From an uncultured Bacilli bacterium (lineage in GTDB: Bacteria > Bacillota_I > Bacilli_A > RF39 > UBA660), in the NCBI GenBank assembly GCA_949841325.1, contig CATKZK010000002.1, positions 663 to 64,662 on the forward strand: DNA of 64,000 nucleotides, given 5' to 3'. Both the position numbers and the translations under genes were made by a program. The notes beneath the pieces are model-generated. The model was given only the letters and a program-made list of their open reading frames with translations. It did not search any database and was not told the origin of the DNA. Shown here piece after piece: positions 1-50,900 of this stretch; position 1 is the stretch's first letter; each line of letters opens with the position of its first letter.

Positions 1-1390
1 ATGATTCGAATTCCTTCATTTACTTCTAATGTGACAACAACATCTTGATTTGTAGCTGTTGAAATACTATATACTAATTTTCCAAACAGATTTGGGTTGA
101 CAATCCAATCTACTTTAGCAGTAATACTTCCTTTATTTCCAGCTTTATCTACAAATTCAAATGTAAATTCTCCATTATGTGTAAAGACATATTCATTTGA
201 ACCATTATTATTTGTAATTGTTACTTCTTCGTCTGTTGATAATGTTGCTTTTACAGATTCACTAGTTGACTCTTGTTTATCATACGAAACAGTTCCAACT
301 GGTGCCTTTTTATCGATCCAATCTACTTTCGCTGTAACTGAACCTTTATTTCCAACTTGATCAACAAACTCAAATGTAAACTCGCCATTTTTTGTAAATG
401 TATACGTTTTACTTCCATTATTATTTGTTACTGTAACACCCTCTTGTACTTGTAATATTGCAGTAACATCTTGATTCGTTAATTCATTTTTATCATAAGT
501 AATTGTTCCCTCTGGCGCTTTCTTATTTATCCAGTCAACTTTAGCTGTATAACTTCCTTTGTTTCCAGCTTCATCTACAAATTCAAATGTAAATTCTCCA
601 TTTTCTTTAAAGATATGTTTATCAGAACCATTGTTGTTTGTTATTGTTGTCTTTTTATTCGTTATTAAGGTAGCTTCTACATCTTTATTTGTAGCTGTTT
701 CTATATTATATACGACTGTTCCTTTTGGAGCTTCACGATCAATCCAGTTTACTTTTGCAGTAACAGTTCCTCTATTACCAGCCTTATCTACAAACTCAAA
801 TGTGAATTCTCCATTTTCCTTAAAGGTATAATTTTTGTTTCCACCATTATTGGTTACAGCAACACCATTTTCTACATTCAATGTTGCTACTACATTTTGA
901 TTCGTTGCAGTAGTCTTATTGTAAGTAACTGTTCCAATTGGTGCTTTTTTATTTATCCATGTTACATTAGCAGTTGCTGTTCCCTCATTACCTGCATCAT
1001 CCACAAATTCAAATGTAAATTCTCCATTTTCTGTGAAAGTATATGTTTTACTTCCGTTATTATTGGTTACAGTAACATTTTCACTTGGAACTAGAGTAAC
1101 AACAACATCATAATTTGTAACATCTCTTATACTATATTCGATGGTTCCTGTTGGAGCAACTTTATCAATCCAAGTTACGGATGCAGGAATCGTTCCAACA
1201 TTTCCATCATGATCAGTGTATTCAAAGATGAATGTTCCATTTTTATCAAATGTGTAAGTTTTACTTCCATTATTATTTGTTACTTCTATATCTTTATCAG
1301 ATACAAGAGTAGCTATAACAGAAGAATTAGTTTTATTAGTTATGTTATACTCAACACTTACATGAGGAGCAATTTGACTAATATCTTCAT
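1..1390 (-). repeat. Tandem coding repeat, exact 213-bp (71-aa) period, about 6.5 copies
   Basis: The landmark TCAAATGT recurs at 157, 370, 583, 796 and 1009, with a variant at 1222 (spacing 213 bp each). Each unit encodes TNNNGSKTYTFTENGEFTFEFVDxAGNxGTxTAxVxWIDKKAPxGT. Confidence 0.9.
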
Positions 1391-4300
1391 ATAAATTTAT
1401 CATGGCAGCTGACGCAAATATTCCATATGTATCAGTCTCAAATTTTACATATTGTCCATAAATACTTTCACCGAAAACTATTTTTCGCATTTCCACTTCT
1501 TGAGCAATATTTTCCATACTTCCTGCTAAAGTCCAGTCATCACCATCTAAGCTTACATATACACGGACATTTTTTATATAATCAGGATCATTAATTTTAT
1601 ATTTCTTTTGAATAAACTCTAAAGCAGAGATATACCTAGGTGAATCTAATTTGATTGTAACAAATGGTTTAACACTTTGAGTTAATACTGAATATCTAAA
1701 ATCAGTATGCCATAAAGTATTAGGATTTCCATCAATTACATTAGGTGCATAGAAAGGTCTAGTTGAATCAATCGATTGTGTGGAATATCCACTTATTGAT
1801 AAATGTTTTATTGAAATATATTTTTCTTCATCAGGGTGATTATCTTCTGTAAAGTGATATTCTAAAACGTTACTTGCAACAGTCGTAGAAGTTGCTTTAG
1901 CTCTAACTTGAAGAGTTCTATTACCAATAACAACTGGTTCTTCTTCACTATAAGAAGTCCAATCATTTGTATCAGAATATTTCCATTCAAGTTTTGAAGT
2001 ATCACCAATAGCTATTAGTCTATTTTCTAAATCATTCAAATATGGATTAAGTTCTAAAGGATCAGCATCTTTAATCTTAATAGAATATTCAGTATTGTCT
2101 CCACTTAGTTTAATTTTGATACCATTTTCTGCTGTGATATTTGATAAATCTTCTTTTGATAATTGAGCATTATTTCCAGATACAGTTTTCCATGTTGCTC
2201 CATTATCTATAGAATATTTCCATTCTTTTGAATAATCAGCATCATTTAAGACGATTTTTCCTGCATTATTTCCATCAAATGAGAAATTTGCTACTACTTT
2301 AATTGCAGTATTTTCATAGAAATTAAACATTGCTCCAGCAATAAAACTATTACTTGCACTTGCAGCTTGTGTTTTCTTACCAACAATTTTGATATATTGT
2401 CCTCTTACAGGTTCAAAATCAATCGTTCTAACTCCAACATCAGCCGTATTTTTATACGTCCAATCAGTTACTGCAGCTTCAACATAGTTTTCTCCATCCA
2501 TACTGATAAGTATTTGAGCTTGCTCTATTTTTCCATTTCCACCAGCTAAAGGATAATAATCCATTGCTGTTATATTTCTTGGTTCATCTAGTTTTATAAC
2601 AATTTCTTTAGTTCTATCACTACCATTCCAAGCAGAATGCCAATTCGTATTAATATTTCCATCTATAATATTTCTTGCATATCTTCCTTGTGCAGTAGCT
2701 TCTGATGAAACACTTTCAATAGAAAGATGTTCAATTTTTACATATTTTCTATCATTAGGTTGAACATTATTAGTAAAATGATATGTTACAGAATCTTTTG
2801 AAGCTAGATATAATCCAGTAGCTCCTGCTTTTACTATTACATCTCTATCTCCTGATAGATCAGGTTCTGCATCTTTATAATATGTCCACTTATCATTTTC
2901 ATTATATTTCCACATCATTGTAGGTACTGCTGCAATCAATTTATCTTCTAAATCATTTGCATAAAGCGTACTTGGCAATCCTAAAGATTCTTGAATATCG
3001 ATCTTAAACAGGTTTTCTTCAGAATAATTGACACCAACAACATGAATATATATATCATTTTCTGCTGTAATACTAGCAATTTGTTCAGCAGTTAATTCTA
3101 ATTCGTGGGCCTCATCTCCTGTAAAGGAAACTTCATTCCATGTCTTTTTACCATCTAAACTATAATCCCATCTAATTCCATTTCCATCAAAACGATTTGA
3201 AAGGACAATTTTATTTGCTTTATTTCCATCAAATGAGAATGTAGCTAATGTAGAATCGAAAAGTCCTAAAAGGTAGGATGCTTCAACTCTAGTAACTCCA
3301 GGTTGTAAGACATCAGTTCCTTGATAATTCTTCGCTTTAGTTAAAGTGCTTGTAACTAATAAGGAATACTTGAATTGATAAGCATTTGATGTAAATTTAG
3401 GTTTAATCAATGCAGATAGTTGATAAAATGGTAAAGGATATTCTAAGAAACTATCACTCAATTCTTTTACTAAATTAAAGTAGTCTTCTTCAGTCTTAGT
3501 AGAATCATTATTATATAATTCAATTAATTTATACCAAGCATCTACATTAAAATCCAAAGCTTTTATTGATGCACGAAGGCATTCCTCGTATTTACTTGGG
3601 TCATTTTTATAACTATTTGCAAGCATTAATAATTCACTAGATCTTTGATAATCTTCAAATCTATTTAATGCCTCTTGTGCCATTACCATGTAGGTTACAG
3701 TATAGCCGGTTGCATATTTTCGATCATTACCCCATCCAAGAAGCATTCTTTCTCCCTTCTCAGATAAAGTCCATCCACTTACGTCATTGTCAATTCCCCA
3801 GTAACCTTGTCCACTCGTATTTTGTGAATAATATAAAAGTGCTGCATGCCCAGGTTGACCTATAACAGTAGCTGGAATACCATGAGTGGTACGAATATTA
3901 GATCCAGATTTAGATATTCCTCCACAAACAGCTCCTGTACCAAATTTGTTTCTAAAGTTCATCCAAACTTTATATAATTTATAATCTGATGTTCCTCTTG
4001 TAACTTTTAAAGTGTACTCTTTTGAATCGGTTCCTCCAGGAATTGTATAAGTCAAATCCCATAGTCCAATTTTTTCTTCTGGATTATTTCTATCAGGAAC
4101 GGCAAATAATTCATTAAAATAATCTTTATTCGCCTCATCATAATAAATACTGTTTCCATAATTTGGCCAAACATATGCCATATATGGGTGTGGTGTTAAA
4201 AGACTACCTACACTAGATGGAGTAGCGTCAATTTTAGATTGAACATAGTCGTTTAACCATAAAATCGATTCATCATCAATAGCATTATTCATAATAAATC

Positions 4301-5552
4301 TCATAGTTTCAACAGGTAAACTCTCAAACATAGGTGTCATATCAACACTATCAGTTGCTTTAAATCTACCATTTTTATGCATAAATCTATAAATAGCATA
4401 ACGAACAACTGCATCAGATTGATCTTCTTTAGAATTTTGCATCCATAATCTAACAGTAGTTGAATGTGTTAATGATAAAGCAAATGCCATTTTCTTATAT
4501 AAATCGCCATAAGTTAAAGTGGAATCCCATTTATTATTAAGAAGTGTAGTATTTGTAAAATCATTTTTATAATTACTATAAAGTCTCGTAAGTTGAACTA
4601 TAGCATTATAATAACTTCCTTCAGGTTTTCCACCCATTACATATAATTTTAAGTTTTCTAAATTAGTCATTAACCAACTAAGGGTTTCATTATATACAGA
4701 ATTAAATGTTGCTAAATTTTGTAATAAATCGTATGTAGCATTATTAACAAATTCTCTTTGCAACAAGATTAATTCTTGCTCATTAGTTAAATTAGCTGAT
4801 GGGAAAGTTCTTATTATCTCATCATATTCTTCTACTGTTTTAATATAATCTACTTTCAAAACAGGTTCTTGATAACTTTCACTAATTAATTTTGCATTTG
4901 CAATAACTGAATGGTCATTACTATTGTTTCCACAGTCTTGAATGACAAACTTAATATATTTTACATTCTTCACTGGATATTTTAGAAAATACGCATCAGT
5001 CGCTCCCTTAAATACGGCATTATTATTAACTTTTTCTTTTAAAGTCCAATTCTTTCCATCATCCGATGTGTGAATTTCAAATCTAACACCATTTCCTATA
5101 GTTCCTCGATCAGCATTTACTCCTAAATAAGCTGTTAAATAATCGTAGTTATATTTAGTTAAGTCATAGGCAACTGTTGCATTGGCATGAGCTAAAATAC
5201 CTTTCATAAACATCTTTTGTTTTCCATCAATATTGACAGTAATTAGTCCCCCGGATAAATTCTTGTCTAATTGAATCGTACTATAAGATGTATAAGAGAT
5301 ATCTGTCATGTATGGAATATCTGAAAGATAAACGAAATCCTTCGCTTCAGCTTTACTTTGTTGTGTATTAGCTAAATTAATATTTTCAGAATTTCCAGAG
5401 TTCAATCCAATATCTGCATTATTTATTGCTAACTCTTTTTCTGCTCCAATTGGTGGTCCAACTGTAGAGAGTATCACTAAGATGAATGATAGCACTCCTA
5501 TACAAATTAAATCATGCATGTAAGTCTTTGAAAATAGAATCATCTTTTTCAT
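1..5552 (-). CDS. Very large secreted/cell-surface multidomain protein (N-terminus and about 1,850 codons in window; C-terminus lies beyond the window start)
   Basis: Continuous minus-strand reading frame from ATG at 5552-5550, preceded by GGGGGAA. It is absent from the ORF track because it runs off the edge. My translation starts MKKMILFSKTYMHDLICIGVLSFILVILSTVG (signal/TM). It then shows an NPCBM-like module (FVYLSDIPYM...GNGVRFEIHTSDDGKNW), a transglutaminase-like Cys-His-Asp core (GAVCGGISKS...HGIPATVIGQPGHAALLYY...GIDNDV), at least two F5/8 type C-like modules (IDGNINTNWHS, IDGNPNTLWHT) and 71-aa Ig-like repeats. Confidence 0.8.
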   Translation of the reverse strand, partial: MKKMILFSKTYMHDLICIGVLSFILVILSTVGPPIGAEKELAINNADIGLNSGNSENINLANTQQSKAEAKDFVYLSDIPYMTDISYTSYSTIQLDKNLSGGLITVNIDGKQKMFMKGILAHANATVAYDLTKYNYDYLTAYLGVNADRGTIGNGVRFEIHTSDDGKNWTLKEKVNNNAVFKGATDAYFLKYPVKNVKYIKFVIQDCGNNSNDHSVIANAKLISESYQEPVLKVDYIKTVEEYDEIIRTFPSANLTNEQELILLQREFVNNATYDLLQNLATFNSVYNETLSWLMTNLENLKLYVMGGKPEGSYYNAIVQLTRLYSNYKNDFTNTTLLNNKWDSTLTYGDLYKKMAFALSLTHSTTVRLWMQNSKEDQSDAVVRYAIYRFMHKNGRFKATDSVDMTPMFESLPVETMRFIMNNAIDDESILWLNDYVQSKIDATPSSVGSLLTPHPYMAYVWPNYGNSIYYDEANKDYFNELFAVPDRNNPEEKIGLWDLTYTIPGGTDSKEYTLKVTRGTSDYKLYKVWMNFRNKFGTGAVCGGISKSGSNIRTTHGIPATVIGQPGHAALLYYSQNTSGQGYWGIDNDVSGWTLSEKGERMLLGWGNDRKYATGYTVTYMVMAQEALNRFEDYQRSSELLMLANSYKNDPSKYEECLRASIKALDFNVDAWYKLIELYNNDSTKTEEDYFNLVKELSDSFLEYPLPFYQLSALIKPKFTSNAYQFKYSLLVTSTLTKAKNYQGTDVLQPGVTRVEASYLLGLFDSTLATFSFDGNKANKIVLSNRFDGNGIRWDYSLDGKKTWNEVSFTGDEAHELELTAEQIASITAENDIYIHVVGVNYSEENLFKIDIQESLGLPSTLYANDLEDKLIAAVPTMMWKYNENDKWTYYKDAEPDLSGDRDVIVKAGATGLYLASKDSVTYHFTNNVQPNDRKYVKIEHLSIESVSSEATAQGRYARNIIDGNINTNWHSAWNGSDRTKEIVIKLDEPRNITAMDYYPLAGGNGKIEQAQILISMDGENYVEAAVTDWTYKNTADVGVRTIDFEPVRGQYIKIVGKKTQAASASNSFIAGAMFNFYENTAIKVVANFSFDGNNAGKIVLNDADYSKEWKYSIDNGATWKTVSGNNAQLSKEDLSNITAENGIKIKLSGDNTEYSIKIKDADPLELNPYLNDLENRLIAIGDTSKLEWKYSDTNDWTSYSEEEPVVIGNRTLQVRAKATSTTVASNVLEYHFTEDNHPDEEKYISIKHLSISGYSTQSIDSTRPFYAPNVIDGNPNTLWHTDFRYSVLTQSVKPFVTIKLDSPRYISALEFIQKKYKINDPDYIKNVRVYVSLDGDDWTLAGSMENIAQEVEMRKIVFGESIYGQYVKFETDTYGIFASAAMINLYEDISQIAPHVSVEYNITNKTNSSVIATLVSDKDIEVTNNNGSKTYTFDKNGTFIFEYTDHDGNVGTIPASVTWIDKVAPTGTIEYSIRDVTNYDVVVTLVPSENVTVTNNNGSKTYTFTENGEFTFEFVDDAGNEGTATANVTWINKKAPIGTVTYNKTTATNQNVVATLNVENGVAVTNNGGNKNYTFKENGEFTFEFVDKAGNRGTVTAKVNWIDREAPKGTVVYNIETATNKDVEATLITNKKTTITNNNGSDKHIFKENGEFTFEFVDEAGNKGSYTAKVDWINKKAPEGTITYDKNELTNQDVTAILQVQEGVTVTNNNGSKTYTFTKNGEFTFEFVDQVGNKGSVTAKVDWIDKKAPVGTVSYDKQESTSESVKATLSTDEEVTITNNNGSNEYVFTHNGEFTFEFVDKAGNKGSITAKVDWIVNPNLFGKLVYSISTATNQDVVVTLEVNEGIRI

Positions 5553-5646
5553 TGCGCATTTCCCCCATTTATTTAATTTTCAAATAGTATACAAAAAAAA
5601 TCGAAAAAAATCAAGTTTTAGAAAAAAATCATGTTTGTTATCCATT

Positions 5647-17737: not shown

Positions 17738-19324
17738 CTATTCTATATTTAATTTTTCATTTCCGAATATATCTTCTGCCAATTTAAGGGAAGAAGTATT
17801 TTCATTTATATACTCAGATTCATCTTGAATTTCGTATTTTTGCTCCTTATTATAATTTTTCATAAACTCTTCCCACTCCTTTTTTGTAATAAAAATCATT
17901 TTATAGGAAGTCTGAAATAAATTATTAAATTTTGTCTCCAATTCATACAATTTTGCATTTCCTACTATTTTTATACTCTCTGAAGGAGTTACAAAAAGAA
18001 TGTATTCATTAGAAGCAACTTGCAACGTCGAACTCTTGATGATTGCAAAGAATTCAGTCAAATTCTTTTTTTTCACTTCTTCAATAAACTGTTTCCATAA
18101 ATTGCCTATCTTTATTTTATCATTTTTATTTGCAGAAACGAAAGTATTATTTAATCTTATGTTAATAAACTCATCGCAAACCACATAAACTTGGGACGAT
18201 TTATTTCCTTTCAATAGATGATTCAGATCCACATTGGTTTCATCCGAAATTATTTCCCGGGAAATAATTTGATTGATTTCACGATTTGATATTTGATTTT
18301 CATCATCATTTATAAATGAAATTAATTCTAATTCTAACAGAAGAAAACCATTTGAATTATAATTAATTTTATTTAATACATCGTTTAATGATTCTATTAA
18401 TCTCTTTAATTGTCTAAAGACATTATTACTTACATTTTTCTTTTTCATGGCAACCGCTTTTTCAATCAAATAATCTAAAATCTTATCAATCAATATTTTT
18501 ATATCAATTCCAGTCTCTTTTATTTTATGAAGTTTTTCTACTAAAGTATTTAGATCATTTTTCAGGATAGCTGTATATAGAGTGTTAATATCTTCTGCCG
18601 TAATCGTTCCATAATTCAAACTCAAATTTTCCATTGTAATATGATCTGCAACTTTGGATAGTTGGTCTAATATACTTAGAGCATCACGCATACAACCATC
18701 TGACAAATAAGATATTTCCTTTAAAGCATCCTCTTCATATTGTATTTGTTCTTTATCACAAATCACAGCAAGATTATTATAAATCAACTCTCTATCAATT
18801 CTTTGAAAATCAAATCTCTGGCATCGTGATAAAACAGTGATGGGAACCTTTTGAATTTCCGTTGTTGCTAAGATAAAGATAACATTACTAGGCGGTTCTT
18901 CTAAAGTTTTTAGAAAAGCATTCCATGCTGCAGTCGATAACATGTGTACCTCATCAATAATATAGATCTTGTATTTTCCATTTGTCGGGGCCACACTGAC
19001 ATTTTCTATCATTTCGCGGATATTATCAACGCCATTATTACTTGCAGCATCCATCTCTATTACATCAGGGCTTGCATCAAACCCTAAACAATTTTCACAT
19101 TCTCCACAAGCTATTCCATCTTTTAAATCCGTACAGTTAATAGCACGAGCAAATATTTTAGCAGAGCTTGTCTTTCCAGTACCACGCGGGCCTGTAAAGA
19201 TGTATGCATGCGCTATTTTATTATTAGTTATTGAATTAATGAGAATTTTTTTTATATGTTCTTGTCCGACTAAATCATTAAAATTAGTAGGCCTATACTT
19301 ACGATAGAGTACTTTATAGTTCAT
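17738..19324 (-). CDS. dnaX: DNA polymerase III subunit gamma/tau
   Basis: YRPTNFNDLVGQEH, Walker A GPRGTGKTS, DEVHML, and zinc module CGECENC. Confidence 0.95.
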   Translation of the reverse strand: MNYKVLYRKYRPTNFNDLVGQEHIKKILINSITNNKIAHAYIFTGPRGTGKTSSAKIFARAINCTDLKDGIACGECENCLGFDASPDVIEMDAASNNGVDNIREMIENVSVAPTNGKYKIYIIDEVHMLSTAAWNAFLKTLEEPPSNVIFILATTEIQKVPITVLSRCQRFDFQRIDRELIYNNLAVICDKEQIQYEEDALKEISYLSDGCMRDALSILDQLSKVADHITMENLSLNYGTITAEDINTLYTAILKNDLNTLVEKLHKIKETGIDIKILIDKILDYLIEKAVAMKKKNVSNNVFRQLKRLIESLNDVLNKINYNSNGFLLLELELISFINDDENQISNREINQIISREIISDETNVDLNHLLKGNKSSQVYVVCDEFINIRLNNTFVSANKNDKIKIGNLWKQFIEEVKKKNLTEFFAIIKSSTLQVASNEYILFVTPSESIKIVGNAKLYELETKFNNLFQTSYKMIFITKKEWEEFMKNYNKEQKYEIQDESEYINENTSSLKLAEDIFGNEKLNIE

Positions 19325-19357: not shown

Positions 19358-19786
19358 TTACTTTCTTTTACCATTTAATTTAAAAAAAGTACTTAGAATT
19401 TGACGATAATCATCTGATTCAACAGGGAAGTCTTTTTCCATCGAACATATATTCGTTTTATTGTATGAGCGCTTTTGCGGATTTCTAGAAAGTAAATAGT
19501 ATACATTTCTTAAACGAGCTTCTTTTATAACCTCTATACACATATGGCACGGTTCTAAAGTGACATATAAATCGCACTCATCTAATCGCCAATCCCCTAA
19601 TTTCTTTTCCGCCTTACGAATAGCATTTATCTCGGCATGAGACGTAACATCATGGTTCTTAATTCTTTTGTTATAAGACTTTGCTATAATTCTATTTTTA
19701 TACACTACAATAGCACCAATAGGCACTTCTTTTTTTTGAGCTGCACACTGTGCTTCCTTTATCAATATATTAATATATTCATTCAT
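19358..19786 (-). CDS. tadA: tRNA-specific adenosine deaminase TadA
   Basis: HAE...PCHMC zinc-deaminase signature. The internal start MNEYINILIKEA was chosen because the longer track ORF would overlap the SRP RNA. Confidence 0.88.
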   Translation of the reverse strand: MNEYINILIKEAQCAAQKKEVPIGAIVVYKNRIIAKSYNKRIKNHDVTSHAEINAIRKAEKKLGDWRLDECDLYVTLEPCHMCIEVIKEARLRNVYYLLSRNPQKRSYNKTNICSMEKDFPVESDDYRQILSTFFKLNGKRK

Positions 19787-19805
19787 ATAACACCAATTCC
19801 AAAAA

Positions 19806-19883
19806 TAAAAAGTGCACATGAATAGAGGTTAATGTGGCTGCTGTCTTCCGACCCTGACCAAGTTATAACATATTCATTGCACC
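19806..19883 (-). ncRNA. ffs: Small (about 78 nt) signal recognition particle RNA
   Basis: The minus strand reads GGTGCAATGAATA...GGTCAGGGTCGGAAGACAGCAGCC...TATTCATGTGCAC. It contains the conserved helix-8 GGAA tetraloop context (GTCAGG.CGGAAG.CAGCAGC). The closing helix is GUGCAAUGAAUA/UAUUCAUGUGCAC, followed by a U-run. An extended -10 (TGgTATACT) lies upstream at about 19889-19897. Confidence 0.75.
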
Positions 19884-19986
19884 AATTAAGTATACCACAA
19901 TATCGCAAAAAAACACAATAGCAAATTTGAAATTTTTGAATCGAGATTTTTATAATTGCCAATATTAAAATTTTGTATAGTTTTTA

Positions 19987-20002
19987 TGTTTCACGTGAAA
20001 CA
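19987..20002. promoter_or_regulatory. parS: parS site 1 (ParB binding site)
   Basis: TGTTTCACGTGAAACA, a perfect 16-bp palindrome. Confidence 0.85.
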
Positions 20003-20070
20003 TAGTATATTTTCATAATTTGATTGGAGAAAAGCAGATTTATATATTCGTGCTTTTATCCAATAGCCAA

Positions 20071-20086
20071 TGTTCCACGTGAAACA
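20071..20086. promoter_or_regulatory. parS: parS site 2
   Basis: TGTTCCACGTGAAACA, identical to the B. subtilis parS consensus. Confidence 0.88.
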
Positions 20087-20225
20087 TTGGCGAGTAAAAA
20101 AGATAGTTATAGGCAGAATTAAAAGTGGCTAAAACTAAATTCTTACGCGGATTATTATTTTAACTAAAACAATCCTTAGTTAAACATAGTATCAAATGGT
20201 TTTATAATTAATCTTTTTAAATCGA

Positions 20226-20241
20226 TGTTTCACGTGGAACA
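20226..20241. promoter_or_regulatory. parS: parS site 3
   Basis: TGTTTCACGTGGAACA, the consensus in opposite orientation. Confidence 0.88.
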
Positions 20242-20337
20242 TTAAAGATTGATTTATAGATAATATACAGAAAATATAAAATTTAATAAACAACAAGAAT
20301 GTTTTTAAAGCAAGATCGACTTATTTTATAACACTAA

Positions 20338-20353
20338 TGTTTCACGTGAAACA
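20338..20353. promoter_or_regulatory. parS: parS site 4
   Basis: TGTTTCACGTGAAACA. The palindrome extends to 26 bp (20333-20358). Confidence 0.85.
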
Positions 20354-20432
20354 TTAGTTGTTGTAACAATTATATTGTTAAAAAAAACACACCTATATTA
20401 AAAAAATAATTTAAAACTATATTTTATCTCGA

Positions 20433-20448
20433 TGTTTCACGTGAAACA
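20433..20448. promoter_or_regulatory. parS: parS site 5
   Basis: TGTTTCACGTGAAACA. The palindrome extends to 24 bp (20429-20452). Confidence 0.85.
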
Positions 20449-20543
20449 TCGAACGTTTTTGTGGTTGTAATCAATATGTTATTCTAAAAAGGAACAAAAT
20501 TGTAAAAAATAACTAACGAATTTTTATTTTTGCGCACTTGCTA

Positions 20544-20559
20544 TGTTTCACGTGGAACA
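20544..20559. promoter_or_regulatory. parS: parS site 6
   Basis: TGTTTCACGTGGAACA, the consensus in opposite orientation. Confidence 0.88.
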
Positions 20560-20591
20560 TTGTGCATGCACTTGTATATAATCTAAATAAA

Positions 20592-20607
20592 TGTTTCACG
20601 TGAAACA
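20592..20607. promoter_or_regulatory. parS: parS site 7
   Basis: TGTTTCACGTGAAACA. The palindrome extends to 32 bp (20584-20615). Confidence 0.85.
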
Positions 20608-20634
20608 TTTATTTATTTGTTTGTTGTTTTCAAA

Positions 20635-20650
20635 TGTTTCACGTGAAACA
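20635..20650. promoter_or_regulatory. parS: parS site 8
   Basis: TGTTTCACGTGAAACA, 14 bp beyond the gyrA stop codon. Confidence 0.85.
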
Positions 20651-20653
20651 TAT

Positions 20654-20681
20654 AAAAAGAGAATTTATTCATTCTCTTTTT
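20654..20681 (-). terminator. Intrinsic terminator of gyrA (hairpin overlaps the stop codon)
   Basis: AAAAAGAGAAT-ttattc-ATTCTCTTTTT inverted repeat. On the minus strand the stem is followed by a U-run. Confidence 0.6.
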
Positions 20682-23268
20682 CATTGCCCTCATCTTGCAA
20701 ATTTTCCGTTTCTGTTATTTCTTCTGTAACACCATTATCTTCTTGCTTTTCTACCACACTCACTGTAGATACATATTGATTTTCCTTCAAATTTATTAAT
20801 TTTACACCTTGTGTAACTCTTCCCAATTGCGAAATTTGGTCAATTGGAAGTCTAATTAACATTCCGCTGTCTGTAATAATTAACAAATCTTTATTATCTG
20901 TAACTATCTTATGAGATACCATATTACCATTTTTGTCAGTTACATTTAGTGCTTTTACTCCTTTGCTACCACGTCTTGTCATTCGATATTCATTAACATA
21001 TGTTTTCTTACCAAATCCGTTAGAAGTAACAATTAGTAAGTTATCATCTAAATTTCCAACTTCCATTCCTATACAAGTTGCTCCATCTAAAGATATACCT
21101 TTTACTCCAGATGCAGTTCTTCCCATTGGACGAATTTCGTTTTCATCAAACACTACCATTCTGCCAGCAGAAGATCCTAAAATGATATATGAATTTCCAT
21201 TACACAATCTCACATCAATTAATTCGTCAGATTCTCTTAATCCGATAGCTAATTTTCCCGAATTTCTAATATTTGCAAATTCTTCAATTGGGGTCTTTTT
21301 AACAATACCATCTCTTGTCGCAAATGCTAAATATTTACCTTTTAACTCATCGTCTTTGTCAGGTGTAATCTTGATAATCGAACTTATTCTTTCCTCTTTT
21401 TCAATTGGAATTAAATTTATAATAGGTAATCCCTTAGATTGTCTACTATAAAGTGGAATCTCATATCCTCTAACACGATAAACTTTTCCTTTTGAAGTAA
21501 AGAAGAGTACGTCATCATGTGTTTTGCAATTAATCAAGTATTTTACATAATCTTCTTCATTAATTGACATTCCTTTTACACCGACACCGCCGCGATGCTG
21601 AGCACGATAGGTATCTGAAGTACATCTCTTAATATAGCCTTTATCAGTAATAGATATAATTATATCTTCCACTGGAATTAGAGATTCATCTTCAATATAA
21701 TCTATGGCCGTCATATCAATATCTGTACGTCTATCGTCTCCATAACGCTTCTTAATTTCTAACATTTCGTCCTTTATAATGTTCAAAACTTTTTCGTTAG
21801 AAGCTAAAATAGAGTTCAAATATTCGATTTCTGCTAGTAATTCTTCTAATTCCTTATCTATTTTTTCTCGTTCTAATCCAGTTAATCTTCTTAAACGCAT
21901 TTCTAAGATATTATTTGCCTGAATTTCAGATAAACCAAATCGATCAATTAATTTAGTTCTTGCATCATCGTCATCCATTGCACCACGTATAATGGCAACA
22001 ACTTCATCGATATGATCTAGTGCGATTTGCAATCCTTTAAGGATATGAACTCTAGCTTCATCTTGAGCTAAATCAAATTTTGTTCTTCTAATAATGACTT
22101 CTTTTTGATGATCTATATATTTAACAATAATATCCTTTAATCCTAAAGTTCTAGGAATTCCATTATCCAACATCAAAAAGATAATACCATAACTCTTTTG
22201 AAAATTTGTATATTTATATAAATTGTTCAAAACTACTTGAGGATTCGCATCTTTTTTTAAAGTAATAGTAATTTTAATACCATTTTTTAAATCAGTATGA
22301 TAATCAGAAATTCCCTCAATGACTTTATTATGAACAAGCTCAGCTACTTTATTCTTAAGTTCATATGTATTGGTCTCGTAAGGAACCTCGGTAATTACGA
22401 TATTACTGTGATTTCCGTGTTCTTCTATCTCAGCACGACTTCGAATCGTAATAGATCCACGTCCCGTTTCATAGGCCTGTTTAATTCCTTTATTCCCTAA
22501 GATTATACCACCTGTAGGAAAATCAGGTCCTTTAATATATTGCATCAATTCAGAGACTTCTATCTCTGGATTATCAATATAGGCAACACATCCATCAATA
22601 ACCTCACTCAAATTATGTGGCGGAATATTTGTTGCCATACCAACAGCTATTCCCATAGTACCATTTACTAAAATATTGGGATATCTTGATGGTAATACTT
22701 TTGGTTCTTTCTTAGTTACATCAAAGTTATCATCCATATCAACGGTATCTTTACGAATATCTCTCAACAACTCTAAAGAAAGTTTGGCAAGGCGCGATTC
22801 TGTATAACGCATAGCTGCGGCTCCATCACCTTCAATATTACCAAAATTTCCATGTCCATCTACTAAAGTATATCTTTGAGAAAAATCTTGTGCCATTCGC
22901 ACCATAGCTTCATAAATAGATGAATCTCCATGTGGATGGTATGTTCCCATTACTGCTCCAACAGTTGTTGCCGATTTACGATGTGGTTTGTCAGGCGTTA
23001 GACCAGATTCAAACATCGTCCACAAAATACGTCTATTTACGGGTTTTAAACCATCTCTTAAGTCAGGTAAAGCACGTGCTGTAATAACACTCATTGAATA
23101 ATCAAGGAATGAATTACTAATCTCTGTAACAATATTATTCTCAGTTAAACTATCTCTTTCATGGAAAGTTCCACCAAATTCATTATTACCAGCTGATGAA
23201 GGTTCTTCTTCACTATCATTTTGTTCTAACTCTAATTCTTCTTCATTTTTTAGTTCTTCATCTGTCAT
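20665..23268 (-). CDS. gyrA: DNA gyrase subunit A
   Basis: 867 aa with AAMRYTE active-site Tyr motif, HPHGD, and C-terminal beta-pinwheel repeats. An acidic N-terminal extension is present. Confidence 0.97.
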
Positions 23269-26453: not shown

Positions 26454-26909
26454 TTATTTCTTCTTATTTTTCATGTAAATAGCTTCTAAATGAGTTGCTC
26501 GTAAAATTTGATTTTTCATGATGTTTATGGATTCATCAAATTCAATGATTTTTTCATTATTGAACATGATATAAGTGGAGTTCTTAATACGATTATCATA
26601 AAACTTTTTTATGTGATTTAAAGACACCCATTCTACTTGCTTTAATCTTGGGGAACAAGTGGGGAAAAAAATAAGACAAAGAGATTCATTAACGATTATA
26701 GGAGCTTTATATTTATATCCCGTTAATTCAAAAGTTAACTCATGTCTTGCTTCTAAGGAAAAACCATTAGCTAAACAGCTTTTTTTTATGATAAAATTAG
26801 GAGCTTTTTTAATGATAAAAAAGCGACTTCTTTCATAGACAATCGATTTTTTCTTGCCATAAGGAATAATCGCCATTGTTTCTTCATTAATTATATAATT
26901 ATCCATCAT
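26454..26909 (-). CDS. ComK-family competence transcription factor-like protein
   Basis: 151 aa. The pattern ETMAIIPY...SCLANGFSLEARHE...YKAPIIV...LIFFPTCSPRLKQVEWVSLNHI resembles the ComK family (tmAi.P, sC...Gss.eGR, K.PI, iFFPT.SP...c.Wi). This is from memory of the family, not an alignment. Confidence 0.6.
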   Translation of the reverse strand: MMDNYIINEETMAIIPYGKKKSIVYERSRFFIIKKAPNFIIKKSCLANGFSLEARHELTFELTGYKYKAPIIVNESLCLIFFPTCSPRLKQVEWVSLNHIKKFYDNRIKNSTYIMFNNEKIIEFDESINIMKNQILRATHLEAIYMKNKKK

Positions 26910-28274: not shown

Positions 28275-29633
28275 TCAATTCAAAATTTGTTCTTTTATCT
28301 CTTTTATTTGTCTTCTAAGTTCTTCATTCTTTTTCATCTCTTCACTTATCTTATCACAAGCGTGTATGACAGTAGCATGATCTCGATTAAATTCTAAGCC
28401 AATTCTCTCAATAGTCTCCTCAGTTGTCATTTTACATATATACATTGCAATTTGCCTGGCATTATTGATATTCGCGACTCTTCGTTTACTCTTTAGATTT
28501 TCAATCGTTAAATCGAAGTAATCTGCAACAGCCTTTTGAATTTTTAAAACATTATTTGTAATATACATTGAGGTTCCAAAATAATCTTTTAAATTTTCTT
28601 GTGCGAATTCTAAGTTTATTTCTTTAGGCGAGTAAATCGCGGTCACTGCATATAATCGATTGATTGCCCCTTCTAGATGTCTAACATCACTTTCACAATT
28701 ATTAGCAATATATTCTAATACTTCTGCTTTAATTAAAGAACTTACATCATGTCCCATGATTTTGTTTTTCAAAATATTTAATTTTAGATCATAATCAGGA
28801 GGATTAATATTGACTGGCAATCCCCAAGAAAAACGTGTTCGCAGTCTATCTTCTAGGAATTTCATATCATTTGGGGAACTATCTGAACTGATAATAATCT
28901 GTTTCCCCTTATCATGCAAGAAATTAAAGGTATTAAAGAACTCATCTTGTGTCTTATCAGCTCCCCTTAAAAATTGAATATCATCAATCATCAGGACATC
29001 CACATTACGATACTTTTCTTTAAAATGTTTAATGATGTCTAAGTTATCTTCGCCCTTTTTATTGATTTGAGTAAAGTCATTAATAAAGGTCTCACTACTT
29101 ACATATAAAACGGATTTGTTTGAATTTTCTTTAATATAATTTCCAATCGCATGCATGAGATGGGTTTTTCCAAGTCCCGATTTTCCATACAGGAATAGGG
29201 GATTATAGAGTTTTCCAGGTTGTTCTGCAACTGCGAGTGCTGACATTTGAGCTAGTCGATTGGAATCTCCTACAACAAAATTATTAAAAGTATACTCTTG
29301 TAGTAAATTACTGTTGGTATCTTTGTATTTAGGAATGTCTTTTACTTCTTCTTCCACATTTTCTTTTTGTTTAGAAAGGTTATTTAGTTCTTCATCGGTT
29401 ATTAATTCATAATTGATATTTTTTCCTGTGACAATTTCTAACACTTCTTCCATTAAATCGGCATAGAAGTCATTTATATATTTCTTTTTATAAGGACTGC
29501 CAACATTAATGATAATGTTTTGTTCATCATATTCGATAAGCTGTGAATCTTTGAACCATGTATTAAATGAAATACCGTTTAATTTGCTGTTTAAAACATC
29601 AAGAAAATTACTCCAAAACTCCTCGCTTTTCAT
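28275..29633 (-). CDS. dnaA: Chromosomal replication initiator DnaA
   Basis: 452 aa with Walker A GKSGLGKTHL, the box VII region, and the C-terminal DNA-binding domain (ARQIAMYICK...DHATVIHA). Confidence 0.97.
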   Translation of the reverse strand: MKSEEFWSNFLDVLNSKLNGISFNTWFKDSQLIEYDEQNIIINVGSPYKKKYINDFYADLMEEVLEIVTGKNINYELITDEELNNLSKQKENVEEEVKDIPKYKDTNSNLLQEYTFNNFVVGDSNRLAQMSALAVAEQPGKLYNPLFLYGKSGLGKTHLMHAIGNYIKENSNKSVLYVSSETFINDFTQINKKGEDNLDIIKHFKEKYRNVDVLMIDDIQFLRGADKTQDEFFNTFNFLHDKGKQIIISSDSSPNDMKFLEDRLRTRFSWGLPVNINPPDYDLKLNILKNKIMGHDVSSLIKAEVLEYIANNCESDVRHLEGAINRLYAVTAIYSPKEINLEFAQENLKDYFGTSMYITNNVLKIQKAVADYFDLTIENLKSKRRVANINNARQIAMYICKMTTEETIERIGLEFNRDHATVIHACDKISEEMKKNEELRRQIKEIKEQILN

Positions 29634-36232: not shown

Positions 36233-36265
36233 AGTAATATTAGAATAGGTAAAAGGGGAATGCTT

Positions 36266-37375
36266 ATGAAGATGGAAACTCAAATTCAAATGATTGATGT
36301 AGAAAAAATAATTCCAAATCGTTTTCAACCAAGACTTCAATTTGATGATGCCGCTTTAAATGATTTAGCATCATCTATTCAAGAACATGGAATTGTCGAA
36401 CCACTTATTGTACGACGTGTAGGAGATAAATTTGAAATCATTGCTGGAGAACGTAGATATAAAGCAAGTCAACTCGTTGGGTTAAAAGAAGTCCCTTGCA
36501 TCATTGCAAATTTAGATGATAATGAATCGGCTGAAGTAGCTATTATTGAAAATACGCAACGAAAAAATCTATCTGCTATAGAAGAAGCGCGTTCTTATAA
36601 AAAATTACTCGATAGACGTTATGTAACACAAGATCAATTAGCTAAGCGTTTAGGCACTTCTCAATCTACTATTGCCAATAAAATCAGACTATTAAACTTA
36701 GATGAACAAGTTCAAGAAGCTTTAATGAAAGAACAAATAAGTGAACGACATGCACGAAGCCTTTTAAAGGTAACAGATAAAGTAAAACAAGTAGATTTAC
36801 TTAAACAAGTGATCAATGAGCGATGGACTGTTAAAAAATTAGAAGAAGAAATAGAAAATGTCACAGAGAGTTATCGAAAAAAGGAAATTGTTGGAAATAT
36901 TAATACCAATAATCGTTTAGACGTTGATATAGACTCCATCATGAAAAATTCTACTGATATACAAAATACAGGAACACCTATTGTCCACTACAAGAATGAA
37001 GAACCTAAAAGACCTCCTAAGAAAGATTCTTTATTTTTCAACAATTTAGAAAATGAAGCAGCCAATATGGAGCCTACTTTAAGTGTTGGATTTAATCCAT
37101 TTAAAACACCTAATTTCAATGGAAGTTTTGCAACGGAAGAGGACGACAATGATTATGATGTTCTTGATATAGAAGAAGAGACAACAGAAGAAGTGAAAAC
37201 AACAGAAAAAGTACCACAAGTTGTCGAACTTGAGCTTGAGAAAAATAAAGATGTAATTGATCAAATCAAAAAAACTCTTTCAAAAGCAAAAGTGAATGGA
37301 TTAAATGTAGAATCAGAAGAGTTTAGTTTTGATGATATGGTACAGTTTGTTATCCGCATAAAAAATGAAGATTAA
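36266..37375 (+). CDS. parB: Chromosome partitioning protein ParB/Spo0J with extended C-terminal region
   Basis: ParB-box region IPNRFQPR, arginine patch/CTPase motif GERRYKAS, HTH QDQLAKRLGTSQSTIANKIRLL. About 369 aa, with a long acidic, low-complexity tail before the last roughly 40 aa. Start is ambiguous (36260, 36266 or 36272). Confidence 0.9.
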   Translation: MKMETQIQMIDVEKIIPNRFQPRLQFDDAALNDLASSIQEHGIVEPLIVRRVGDKFEIIAGERRYKASQLVGLKEVPCIIANLDDNESAEVAIIENTQRKNLSAIEEARSYKKLLDRRYVTQDQLAKRLGTSQSTIANKIRLLNLDEQVQEALMKEQISERHARSLLKVTDKVKQVDLLKQVINERWTVKKLEEEIENVTESYRKKEIVGNINTNNRLDVDIDSIMKNSTDIQNTGTPIVHYKNEEPKRPPKKDSLFFNNLENEAANMEPTLSVGFNPFKTPNFNGSFATEEDDNDYDVLDIEEETTEEVKTTEKVPQVVELELEKNKDVIDQIKKTLSKAKVNGLNVESEEFSFDDMVQFVIRIKNED

Positions 37376-47415: not shown

Positions 47416-47979
47416 GCGGAATTTAATAAAGTAACGATGAAATGTTTAAATTCAAGTAACAATGCATTTAGTATGGATTGTGAAGGAAACTTAGTCGTAA
47501 ATTCTATCAGGACAAGAGAAGGAAGTGGTGGTTTAACATTTGATGACATCTATCCAATAGGAAGTATTTATATGAGCATTCAAAATGAGAATCCAACTCA
47601 ACTATTTGGTGGAACTTGGGAATCTATTAAAGATAAGTTTTTGCTATCATCAGGTGATACTTATGAAGTAGGAGTAGAAGGAGGAGAGGCAGAACATACC
47701 TTATCTATAAATGAAATTCCAAGTCATAGTCATACCCCATCAGATGCAGGAAGAAACTGGGTATATGGAACAGATCAAGTGGGAAGAAGACAAATTGCAA
47801 CAGGAAATACTGGACTATACGTACCTGTTGCTGCAGATGGAATAAATGGCTATAAATGGGGAGGGACATCTGACACAGGTGGAAATAAATCACATAACAA
47901 TATGCCTCTATACTTAACAGTAAATATGTGGAAAAGAGTTGCTAAAAAAAAGGAACTCTTTTTTTATGAAAGGAAATGA
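47362..47979 (+). CDS. Phage tail-collar domain protein (MdpB/tail-fibre-like), copy 1
   Basis: IGSIYMS...PTQLFGGTWESIKDKFLL...GGEAEHTLSINEIPSHSH...GGNKSHNNMPLYLTVNMWKRVA matches the tail-collar pattern (P..fGGtW..i..rFl...TGGe..HTLt..EmPsH.H...aHnNmPPY..v..W.R). The stop TGA (47977-47979) lies 1 nt before the RHS ATG. Confidence 0.7.
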   Translation: MNEEKIRNCFTEVENGVNAEFNKVTMKCLNSSNNAFSMDCEGNLVVNSIRTREGSGGLTFDDIYPIGSIYMSIQNENPTQLFGGTWESIKDKFLLSSGDTYEVGVEGGEAEHTLSINEIPSHSHTPSDAGRNWVYGTDQVGRRQIATGNTGLYVPVAADGINGYKWGGTSDTGGNKSHNNMPLYLTVNMWKRVAKKKELFFYERK

Positions 47980-47980
47980 C

Positions 47981-50900
47981 ATGAAAGAATTAGTCAACTT
48001 AAGAAAAGAAAAAGAAAAACATTATCTAAATGATGATGGTACAATTACAGCATATCTATATGATGAAGCTATTCATTACTTAGATAAAGAAACATATGAA
48101 GAAATCGATAATACGATTATTGAAAAAGAAAAATACTATATGAATCATAAAAATGATTTTCAAGTCGAGTTTTATAAAGAACACTTTTTAGTAAGTGTAA
48201 GTACAAACAAGTATTATATGAATATCTTATTAGAAAATAGTAATAAACTGCAAAGAGTAGAGACAAAAGGAAATAAGATTACATTTAAAGAAATAATAAA
48301 AGATGTTGATTTAGAGTATGAAATTATTGGAAGAAAATTAAAAGAAACTTTTAAACTTAATCAGAAAGGATTAAAAAATGTAACATTTAAGATTAATACG
48401 AATTTAGAATTAGAAAAAAGTGATCAAGAAATAATAGCAAAAAAAGATGGAGTAGAACATTATCGATTTGACGCACCATTCTTAAAAGATGCTAAGAATA
48501 ATTATTTCTATAATTGTGAAATAAGTCTAGAAAAAAAAGATAACTGTTATATACTTACATATCTATTAGATGAAGATTGGTTAGAAGAAGCCGTCTATCC
48601 AGTCATTATTGATCCTACAATAACAAATAAAAGAAATACAGTAACAGACACTTATATTTACTTATCTGCAAATGGCAAGGATACGACTGAAACGAGACAT
48701 ACGAAACCATTTATTAAAGTAGGTGTAGGAGATAATACTGTATATCGTAGTTTAGTAAAATTTGAACTACCTCATATTGGAACATCCGCACAAGTCATCC
48801 ATGCAGAAGCCTATTTTAGTAGCCATGGAGATGACCGATATCTTCTTGGAGAAGAATATACATCTATGGATAAAATTGCTACACTTCATAGAATGACAAA
48901 AGATTGGGATGAAGCTACTGCCAACTGGGATAATTTAGCAGAAGATTATGATCCATTTGTTGAAAATTATATGACATTAAGTAGAACTGAAGTAAGACCA
49001 TATCCTGAAAATAAACTTATTCTTTCTATTATGCCATTTGATATTACAAATATTGTAAAAAAATGGTATTCAGGAACACCAAACTATGGACTTATGATGA
49101 AATGGTATGAGGAAGTATATGATGCAAATTGCAAAGAATACACTCTCTATTCATCAAATAATACAGAGTCAGTTGAAGGATCTAATCCTAGACCTCTTTT
49201 AATGATTCAGTATCGTTATCAAAATGGAATATTAGATTATATGAGTTATCAAACAACTTCATTAAGTACAGTCAATAGTTCTATTAATAACTATAATGGA
49301 AATGTAACAAATGTAATTCCTATTAATCAATTAGCAGGAAGTGACTTAGCATTAAATTTAATTTACAATACAAGCAGTGTTCTTCTAAATGAAGACTTTA
49401 AAATTGCCAAAGGATGGAAATTAAACTATGATGAGTATGTTGCTAAAGAGATTATAGATGATATTATTTACTACAAATATGTAGGTGGTACAGGAACCAT
49501 TCATTATTTCTATGAAAAGACATTTGAAAATAAAGAAAAAGTGTGGATTGATGAAGATGGTCTTGGCTTAAGTTTAGATATAGAAAAGAATGATGATGGA
49601 ACAATCGAAAGATTTATAATTATTTCAAAAACAGGAATTAAATCTACATATCTAAAAGAAAATAATTACTATCTTTCAAGGATAGACTATGTTGATAATA
49701 GTTACTTACAATTAGTAAGAGATGCAAGTAATAGAATAATCAGTGTAAAGGATGAAAAAGATAACATCATTTCTATTAGCTATGCCTCAAATGGAATTCA
49801 ATTTACAAGTGATTCAGAAACCACTTCTATTACTATTGAAAATAATTTAATAAAAACAATTCATCTTAATATTGGAGATATTTCTATTAACTATAACACA
49901 AATGATATTATCACAAAAATTATAGATGTTACAGGAATTAGTTTATCTTATGAATACTATGATGGAATTCCTTATCGTTTAAAAAAGATTACCAATATTG
50001 GTTTAAATGATGAAATTGGAAAATTTAAAACATTTGAATATCATTTTAATTCTACAACAGTTACTGATAATAAGAATAACAAGATGAGATATACATTCAA
50101 TAATCTAGGAAATACAATTGGAACAGTTTTATTAAGTAAAGATGGAACTCTTAAAAATTCATTTGGTTTTTCTGATCAATATGTTGATGAACTTAAATTA
50201 CCTGAATCAAATAAACCATTTGCTACTTCCGTTCCTATAAAATACATAGAGGAAACAGAGACTATAGAATATGGAAAAGAAAATCTTATGCCAAATGGTG
50301 ACTTTGAATCTGATGAAACAAATATCTTTACTTCTTATGGAAATGAGATTACAAATGAAACAAGTTATACAGGATGTCACTCAATTAAATTAAATAGTGG
50401 ATCTGTTGGAAGTATGCTTTTAGAAACTGGTCCACATTTATTAACTGCCTACTTTAAGAATGAAAAGCCAATTACTTTAGAGATGCAAGCATCAGGGACA
50501 TCATCACCAATTTTCTATAATCCTATTACTATTCCTGCACATCAAGAATTTACTAAAGTTGAAATTCCATTAAAAGTATATGAATCTTATGAATCAGTTG
50601 AATTCTATTTTACCGTAGAAGATAATGAAATTGCTTATGTTGATCATGTATCTCTTTATAAAGGAGAATATGTCAATCTAGTGAAGAACTCCAGTTTTAA
50701 TAATCTTGATGAAATGACAGGACTTATAGATTGGACAGTTGTGGGTTCTAATAATGATACAGGAGAAGAATTGAGTGATTGTTATGATATTGTGACATTA
50801 GATTCTTATGAAAAAGCATTAAAGCTCAAAAGTGTATTAAATGGAAGTGTTGTGGCCTATCAATCCGTTCCTATAACAGGCAAAAAAGGAGATGTCTATA

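Follow-up and report, generated by a model that had tools for sequence, protein, structure and literature searches.

Eight clustered parS sites between gyrA and ffs near oriC of an uncultured Bacilli lineage, and a predicted Noc-type gene on the other side of the origin

In model chromosomes, a parS cluster extends across kilobases to hundreds of kilobases, and its sites often lie inside genes. The systems described so far include Myxococcus xanthus, with 24 parS upstream of parAB (PMC3778016), Streptomyces coelicolor and Listeria innocua, with 20–23 sites, and Pseudomonas aeruginosa, with a cluster of four (PMC7333895, PMC3778016, PMC4368675). A single parS is often enough in model organisms, and the reason for the multiplicity is an acknowledged open question (PMC7333895). 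On the F plasmid, sopC comprises 12 direct repeats of 43 bp, each with a 16-bp inverted repeat (PMC3177203). ParB–parS systems that work with SMC but lack ParA have precedent (PMC7333895), and SMC loading is their likely role in Streptococcus pneumoniae and Staphylococcus aureus, which have no ParA (PMC7333895; bioRxiv 10.64898/2026.03.06.710092). Noc, which binds Noc-binding sites (NBS), requires an N-terminal amphipathic membrane-targeting helix (PMC4331003, PMC8429893).

The locus discussed here lies in a 64-kb stretch of DNA, referred to as the window, from an uncultured, low-GC, apparently spore-forming lineage whose relatives are labelled “Bacilli bacterium” or “Erysipelotrichales bacterium” in public records. 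Eight copies of an 18-bp palindrome (ATGTTYCACGTGRAACAT) are found within 0.67 kb (19986–20651), with start-to-start spacings of 84, 155, 112, 95, 111, 48 and 43 bp (Table 1). The density is about one site per 84 bp and the array is wholly intergenic. All eight copies match the 16-bp parS consensus TGTTNCACGTGAAACA at all 16/16 positions on one or both strands. An earlier note on this DNA had reported these palindromes and their spacings, which were all recovered exactly, and had described every copy as a full consensus match, which is true on at least one strand. Its further statement that the window contains no other copy holds even with up to two mismatches to the 16-mer or up to three to the 18-mer. 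By comparison, shuffled sequence gives 0.08–0.11 mismatch-tolerant matches, and base composition predicts 1.7e-4 perfect parS per 64 kb by chance. Judged by their letters, the eight palindromes are genuine chromosomal parS.

Table 1. Coordinates of the array and of the features discussed with it (positions in the window)
Feature	Position	Strand	Remarks
tadA	19358–19786	-	next after ffs
Small SRP RNA (ffs)	19801–19890	-	other border of the array
parS site 1	19986–20003		ATGTTTCACGTGAAACAT; closest site to the SRP RNA gene
parS site 2	20070–20087		ATGTTCCACGTGAAACAT; palindrome 4 bp longer each side (ccaa/ttgg)
parS site 3	20225–20242		ATGTTTCACGTGGAACAT
parS site 4	20337–20354		palindrome 4 bp longer each side
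parS site 5	20432–20449		palindrome 3 bp longer each side
parS site 6	20543–20560		ATGTTTCACGTGGAACAT, as site 3
parS site 7	20591–20608		palindrome 7 bp longer each side
parS site 8	20634–20651		lies 14 bp past the gyrA stop
gyrA	20665–23268	-	left-replichore gene; 3' end adjoins the array
Perfect NBS	18252–18265		ATTTCCCGGGAAAT; within the linker of DnaX; distance to the array 1.7 kb
ParB-family gene	36260–37375	+	no other ParB-family gene in the window; translation probably starts at 36266 (MKME...); 371 aa

Outside the 18-mer, the eight copies have no similarity to one another. Spacers and flanks are unrelated, and the array is irregular (43–155 bp spacing), with no regular head-to-tail direct repeats of one unit. 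Four of the sites (those starting at 20070, 20337, 20432 and 20591) are extended by a palindromic flank of at least 3 bp whose sequence is not conserved. The same property is seen in 52 of 289 parS sites from many phyla (loci L007–L126), where 8.5 ± 2.8 would be expected; a symmetric flank preference, hairpin use or template-switch repair may be the cause. When strains are compared, all five differences in the array fall into spacers, a result that is not significant (P ~0.35).

The array fills the 775-bp gap between the gyrA stop (20665) and ffs. It is placed on the left replichore, 7.6–9.5 kb from oriC, that is 7.6 kb from the dnaA–dnaN spacer and about 9–9.5 kb from the dnaA–rpmH side, while the ParB-family gene is 15.6 kb away; the distances given earlier to these three landmarks proved correct on re-measurement. 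The minus strand carries, in order, dnaA (28275–29633), dnaN, a comK-like gene, recF, gyrB, gyrA, the array, ffs, tadA, dnaX, ybaB and recR. The plus strand carries yidC, jag, mnmE, mnmG, rsmG and the ParB-family gene, followed by a convergent PBP1A gene, and GC skew switches at about 30 kb of the window. The ComK-family gene between dnaN and recF (26454–26909, minus strand) is found at this place throughout the clade; in Bacillus, the gene usually there is a small S4-like one. Two giant open reading frames were also observed, one of 2,072 aa at 47939–54157 (plus strand) and one of at least 1,859 aa at 1–5646 (minus strand), which extends past the left window edge and thereby explains an apparently ORF-free stretch there.

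The gyrA–ffs gap contains no credible ORF (short ORFs merely begin at the ATG of each parS), no Rfam match and no DnaA box. A peptide-coding or known-RNA region was ruled out on the first two of these grounds, and a part of oriC on the third. An A/T-rich hairpin at about 20654–20681, over the gyrA stop, is possibly a weak terminator. A near-consensus promoter-like match (TTGAAA-18-TATAAT) at 19927–19956 on the plus strand is directed into the array and away from ffs. No product is annotated downstream of it, and in such AT-rich sequence the match may have arisen by chance.

These observations bear on the idea that the array is mainly a local regulatory or insulating element and not a centromere, in which ParB-coated or hairpin-forming DNA would separate gyrA from ffs–tadA–dnaX, or would silence or terminate transcription. 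The array directly adjoins a gene end on one side and a promoter region on the other, half of its sites have the extra palindromic flanks, site 5 together with the T-run 3' of it has a terminator-like hairpin score on the plus strand, and the promoter-like match just described is a strong one. However, promoter-like matches in the gap are no commoner than in shuffles (11 vs 11.3), and a promoter and terminator scan gave no enrichment. Further, extended flanks are a general parS property in many phyla, and termination needs one or two hairpins, whereas the copies reach 7–10. Relatives also have parS within the coding part of dnaX, where a stop in transcription would be damaging. We therefore regard this idea as improbable.

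The locus was followed through related genomes. In 17 of 18 related loci, which stem from metagenome-assembled genomes (MAGs) of uncultured gut Bacilli/Erysipelotrichales-like bacteria, the gyrA–tadA gap holds at least two parS (2–8 copies), and a contig of the same species (L001) has the identical eight-site array. This syntenic conservation argues that the parS sites are under selection, as the earlier note had suspected from the otherwise gene-free 0.75 kb in a compact genome. In a metagenome sample anchored on DnaX, and so chosen independently of parS content, all six loci with gyrA–tadA–dnaX synteny (GyrA 68–71% identical) have 2–7 parS in the gap, and DnaX-anchored loci without this synteny have no parS there. 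Four relatives anchored on DnaN (69–79% DnaN identity) have 2–7 sites (six; three perfect plus four with one mismatch; seven; and two), all in the gyrA–tadA gap, with no parS outside it in 21 kb spanning oriC. A distant subgroup, in which DnaN is only about 50% identical, has 8–9 parS over about 2 kb, divided among the gyrA–tadA gap, the tadA–dnaX gap and the dnaX coding region. Throughout the lineage, the array is a selected, non-random and origin-proximal feature.

Over the 18 loci, gap length increases with the number of parS (Spearman 0.84, intercept 29 bp and slope about 129 bp per site, uncorrected for phylogeny), and the non-coding DNA essentially consists of array units. Near-identical head-to-tail units of 42–45 bp occur in three relatives (L094, L107 and L129) and repeat units of about 153 bp in a fourth (L148), from which it follows that arrays grow by tandem duplication. 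Across the lineage, the array expands and contracts via duplication of units of about 43 bp or about 150 bp. In the window, the spacers have diverged and the cores alone are kept.

Four independent assemblies of the same species (L002–L005) start inside the array, between sites 8 and 7 (about 20610). Assemblers thus break at the parS repeat, and dense parS arrays are probably under-counted in metagenome-assembled genomes. One contig labelled as an uncultured Muribaculaceae (L041) has the gyrA–tadA–dnaX–ybaB–recR order, 28% GC, seven parS and proteins like those of the Bacilli clade; it is probably mis-binned. The L129 locus, which belongs to the subgroup with parS only, has a DUF1016 insertion, and more insertions are seen in two relatives.

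Could the palindromes be a selfish or neutral repeat, REP/MITE-like or made by slippage, that merely resembles parS? Tandem duplication clearly makes copies in relatives, and the assemblies break at the repeat, both of which favour this idea. Nevertheless, the explanation is very improbable. The palindrome sequence is identical to the pan-bacterial parS, and its cores are kept while the spacers diverge. Its location persists in relatives with DnaN only about 50% identical. No conserved flank, terminal repeat or target duplication surrounds the palindromes. The earlier note had named a dispersed REP/MITE-type repeat as the outcome that would speak against parS, and the 64 kb contain no dispersed copies, even at two to three mismatches.

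How unusual is such density? When about 185,000 species genomes were searched for parS pairs no further than 42 bp apart, at least 120 loci were returned. Such tight pairs are widespread in many phyla, most of the listed ones being in the classic mnmG–rsmG–parB region. Their spacing has broad peaks at 39, 42 and 45–47 bp, a distribution confounded by related genomes. Among the matches listed, one locus equals the density of the window: a Parcubacteria MAG (L101, 7008–7813) with eight parS in 700 bp and ten in 0.8 kb, also downstream of gyrA. A Moraniibacteriota MAG (L089, 6414–7911) has ten parS in 1.5 kb, and the window's relative L094 has ten within 1.5–2 kb. The Parcubacteria and Moraniibacteriota arrays resemble the window's in being of equal or greater density, intergenic and from small-genome uncultured bacteria, but they belong to unrelated phyla and have other spacer sequences. 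No ParB-family gene is visible in either 8-kb locus, and no description of these two dense arrays was found in the literature. Arrays of the window's density are rare but recurrent among the matches listed (Parcubacteria, Moraniibacteriota). The claim that the array is exceptionally dense was overstated, as tight pairs are widespread and equal density occurs in unrelated lineages. Clustered parS are already known, and the extreme density with growth by tandem units is a variant of them.

The array shares with the known chromosomal clusters the many copies of the same 16-bp palindrome near oriC; it differs in that no parAB operon is beside it and no ParA is encoded within 64 kb. The likeness to a plasmid centromere, which had been drawn earlier, is only in part upheld. 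The 42–45 bp head-to-tail units of the relatives, and the last two spacings in the window (48 and 43 bp), recall the 12 × 43 bp of sopC. In contrast, the array in the window is irregular, with unrelated spacers, rather than a regular repeat, its motif is the chromosomal parS, and partition genes are not adjacent. The parA–parB operon that a sopC-type centromere would have beside it is absent, there being neither ParA nor canonical ParB in the 64 kb.

This raises the question of which protein uses the array. The earlier note had taken the ParB-family gene 16 kb away to be the parB in question, an assignment that the following results do not support. The protein aligns with 204 bits to Noc structures and with 157 bits to Bacillus subtilis Spo0J, and its specificity residues are Q135, K141, N146 and R163, equivalent to positions 173, 179, 184 and 201 (Q-K-N-R). 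Work on ParB and Noc specificity found that binding to parS requires R173, which never varies among the binders, along with a small residue at 201; Noc instead carries Q173 and R201, and a single lysine, at 179 or 184, suffices for NBS specificity (PMC7383237). Both switching residues of Noc (Q173 and R201), along with one permissive lysine, are thus present in the window's protein. The prediction derives from variants of Caulobacter ParB, a different protein, and the QKNR, QKSR and QKTR variants do not appear in the part of the Jalal et al. supplement that was covered. The pattern is general to the family, as 119 of the 120 listed homologs read QK(S/N/T/Q/...)R. The family is uniform, with at least 120 clusters, lengths of 360–385 aa and S, N or T at position 184.

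It should, however, be noted that the family departs from Noc in several respects. Its members start with MKME..., only about 17 residues ahead of the NRFQPR motif, and the window's protein aligns to Noc structures from Noc residue 26–29 onwards; this short N-terminus therefore lacks both the membrane-targeting helix of Noc and a ParA-activating peptide. An extra segment of about 160 residues, acidic in part, separates the HTH domain (whose alignment reaches about residue 208) from the ParB-like C-terminus. Against the NCBIfam model for Noc (TIGR04285), the protein scores 285.6 bits, under the cutoff of 315. The CTP box is intact (GERRYKA; GERR(F/Y)KA in the family). Compared with the Noc–NBS systems of B. 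subtilis and S. aureus, the rsmG-linked gene is alike in its Q173/K179/R201, its CTP box and the conserved NBS, and unlike in the missing helix, in S/N/T instead of K at 184, in the extra residues and in the sub-cutoff score. On these features, the family members are neither classical Noc nor classical ParB. In S. aureus, the Noc paralog is beside rsmG and parB is far from noc.

No second ParB-family gene and no ParA was detected in the 64-kb window or in any clade locus; the queries of this search recovered the known gene at E = 7e-49. A canonical ParB (R173/G201) was likewise absent from the window and from the clade loci of 8–21 kb. With neither ParA nor canonical ParB in the 64 kb, the gene for the ParB that loads the array most likely lies in another part of the genome.

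The sites that a Noc-type protein would read are present. A perfect NBS is found in the DnaX linker, against a chance expectation of 1.7e-4 per 64 kb, and relatives have a perfect NBS at the same place, in two reading frames. The frame ISREI is used in the window, L210, L212 and L130, and the frame YFPGNN in L213, L128, L131 and L021, which argues that selection acts on the DNA and not on the peptide. The linker itself is hypervariable. In one subgroup of the clade (subgroup A), the linker has instead 2–3 parS encoded as V(S/P)RET, which share the frame of ISREI, so that parS and NBS have possibly been converted into one another in place inside dnaX. Perfect NBS also occur directly after the gyrA stop or between parS in L021 (at 2062), L127 (5284 and 6352), L130 (5709 and 5735) and L148 (5272), which means that loading sites of two ParB-family systems are interleaved within a few tens of bases.

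The distribution of the two motifs separates them. Subgroup B, which has the QKxR gene wherever the gene is visible, has 50 parS and 21 perfect NBS in 228 kb, and subgroup A has 52 parS and 0 NBS in 98 kb. NBS and the Noc-type gene occur together in the window and in L210–L213. In a sister lineage that resembles subgroup A (L218 and L219), the gene after rsmG is Q/N-rich, has no Pfam match and is not of the ParB family; there, no NBS is found at up to two mismatches, and three parS are still present. As NBS co-vary with the Noc-type gene and parS do not, the parS binder must be another protein. In the L218/L219 lineage, this binder would be encoded outside oriC ± 10 kb, and by parsimony the same would apply to the host of the window. 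Collectively, the specificity residues and this co-variation strongly indicate that the ParB-family gene of the window encodes a Noc-type paralog that reads NBS and not parS.

An opposing view is that the Noc-type protein is the lineage's only ParB-family protein, loads at NBS as well as parS through a dual or re-tuned specificity, so that the roles of ParB and Noc would be united in one CTPase clamp, and has the array as its main hub. No other ParB-family gene lies within 30 kb on either side of oriC, whether in the window or in relatives, and without the membrane-targeting helix the protein would be no classical nucleoid-occlusion factor. Further, NBS and parS are interleaved by gyrA in the four relatives named above and swap in the same frame at the same dnaX codon position (ISREI for NBS, VSRET for parS), and dual-specificity variants are known from deep mutational scans. 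However, those dual variants mostly have T or S at 201, whereas the protein has Q173 and R201, the two switching residues of Noc, and parS-specific variants always have R173 (PMC7383237). The sister lineage L218/L219 has parS with no Noc-type gene nearby, so that its parS are served by another protein, and the 52 parS against 0 NBS of subgroup A show that the motifs are separable. We consider this view unlikely. It can be put in molecular terms, as a single Noc-derived CTPase clamp with neither membrane helix nor ParA that would both load at parS to organise SMC and the origin and read NBS, or as a co-evolution of protein and sites in which the parS and NBS of dnaX interconvert; either form is doubtful in our judgement.

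The reading that we favour, and hold to be likely, is that the array is a cluster of loading gates for ParB–CTP, forming by oriC an SMC-loading complex, probably ParA-less, whose cognate ParB is encoded elsewhere. Under this reading, ParB dimers would nucleate at each parS, and CTP would close them into clamps that slide into the flanking DNA. Eight gates in 0.67 kb would raise the local loading rate and give rise to one compact partition complex, a single high-flux loading hub on the left replichore 8–9 kb from oriC, which would recruit SMC and mark the origin region. Both the recruitment of SMC and the way in which site density would act on loading are carried over from model organisms. The 64 kb around oriC encode no ParA, and the probable main role would therefore be to load SMC and organise the origin, with ParA-driven transport less likely, much as in S. 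pneumoniae and S. aureus, which are likewise low-GC Firmicutes with no ParA near the origin. S. aureus differs in having five parS over about 400 kb, compared with eight in 0.67 kb here. One concern with the loading-gate reading is the interleaving of NBS and parS in L021, L127, L130 and L148, which also fits one protein reading both.

The array on its own is a moderate surprise; the further interest is in the interplay of parS and NBS and in the copy-number series. Why chromosomes have many clustered parS when one suffices is listed as an open question in a review of the field (PMC7333895), and in this clade a single syntenic locus provides a natural series, from 0 to 8 parS in the gyrA–tadA gap, or 8–10 per locus once those near tadA and within dnaX are added. 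If a single clamp did serve both motifs, or if protein and sites had co-evolved, a natural re-programming of ParB/Noc specificity would have been caught in genomes, and the dense array would compensate as the high-avidity hub of a system that has no ParA. With no ParA nearby, and with Noc-type sites interleaved with parS or swapped for them, the clade makes site number, spacing and ParB/Noc cross-talk testable.
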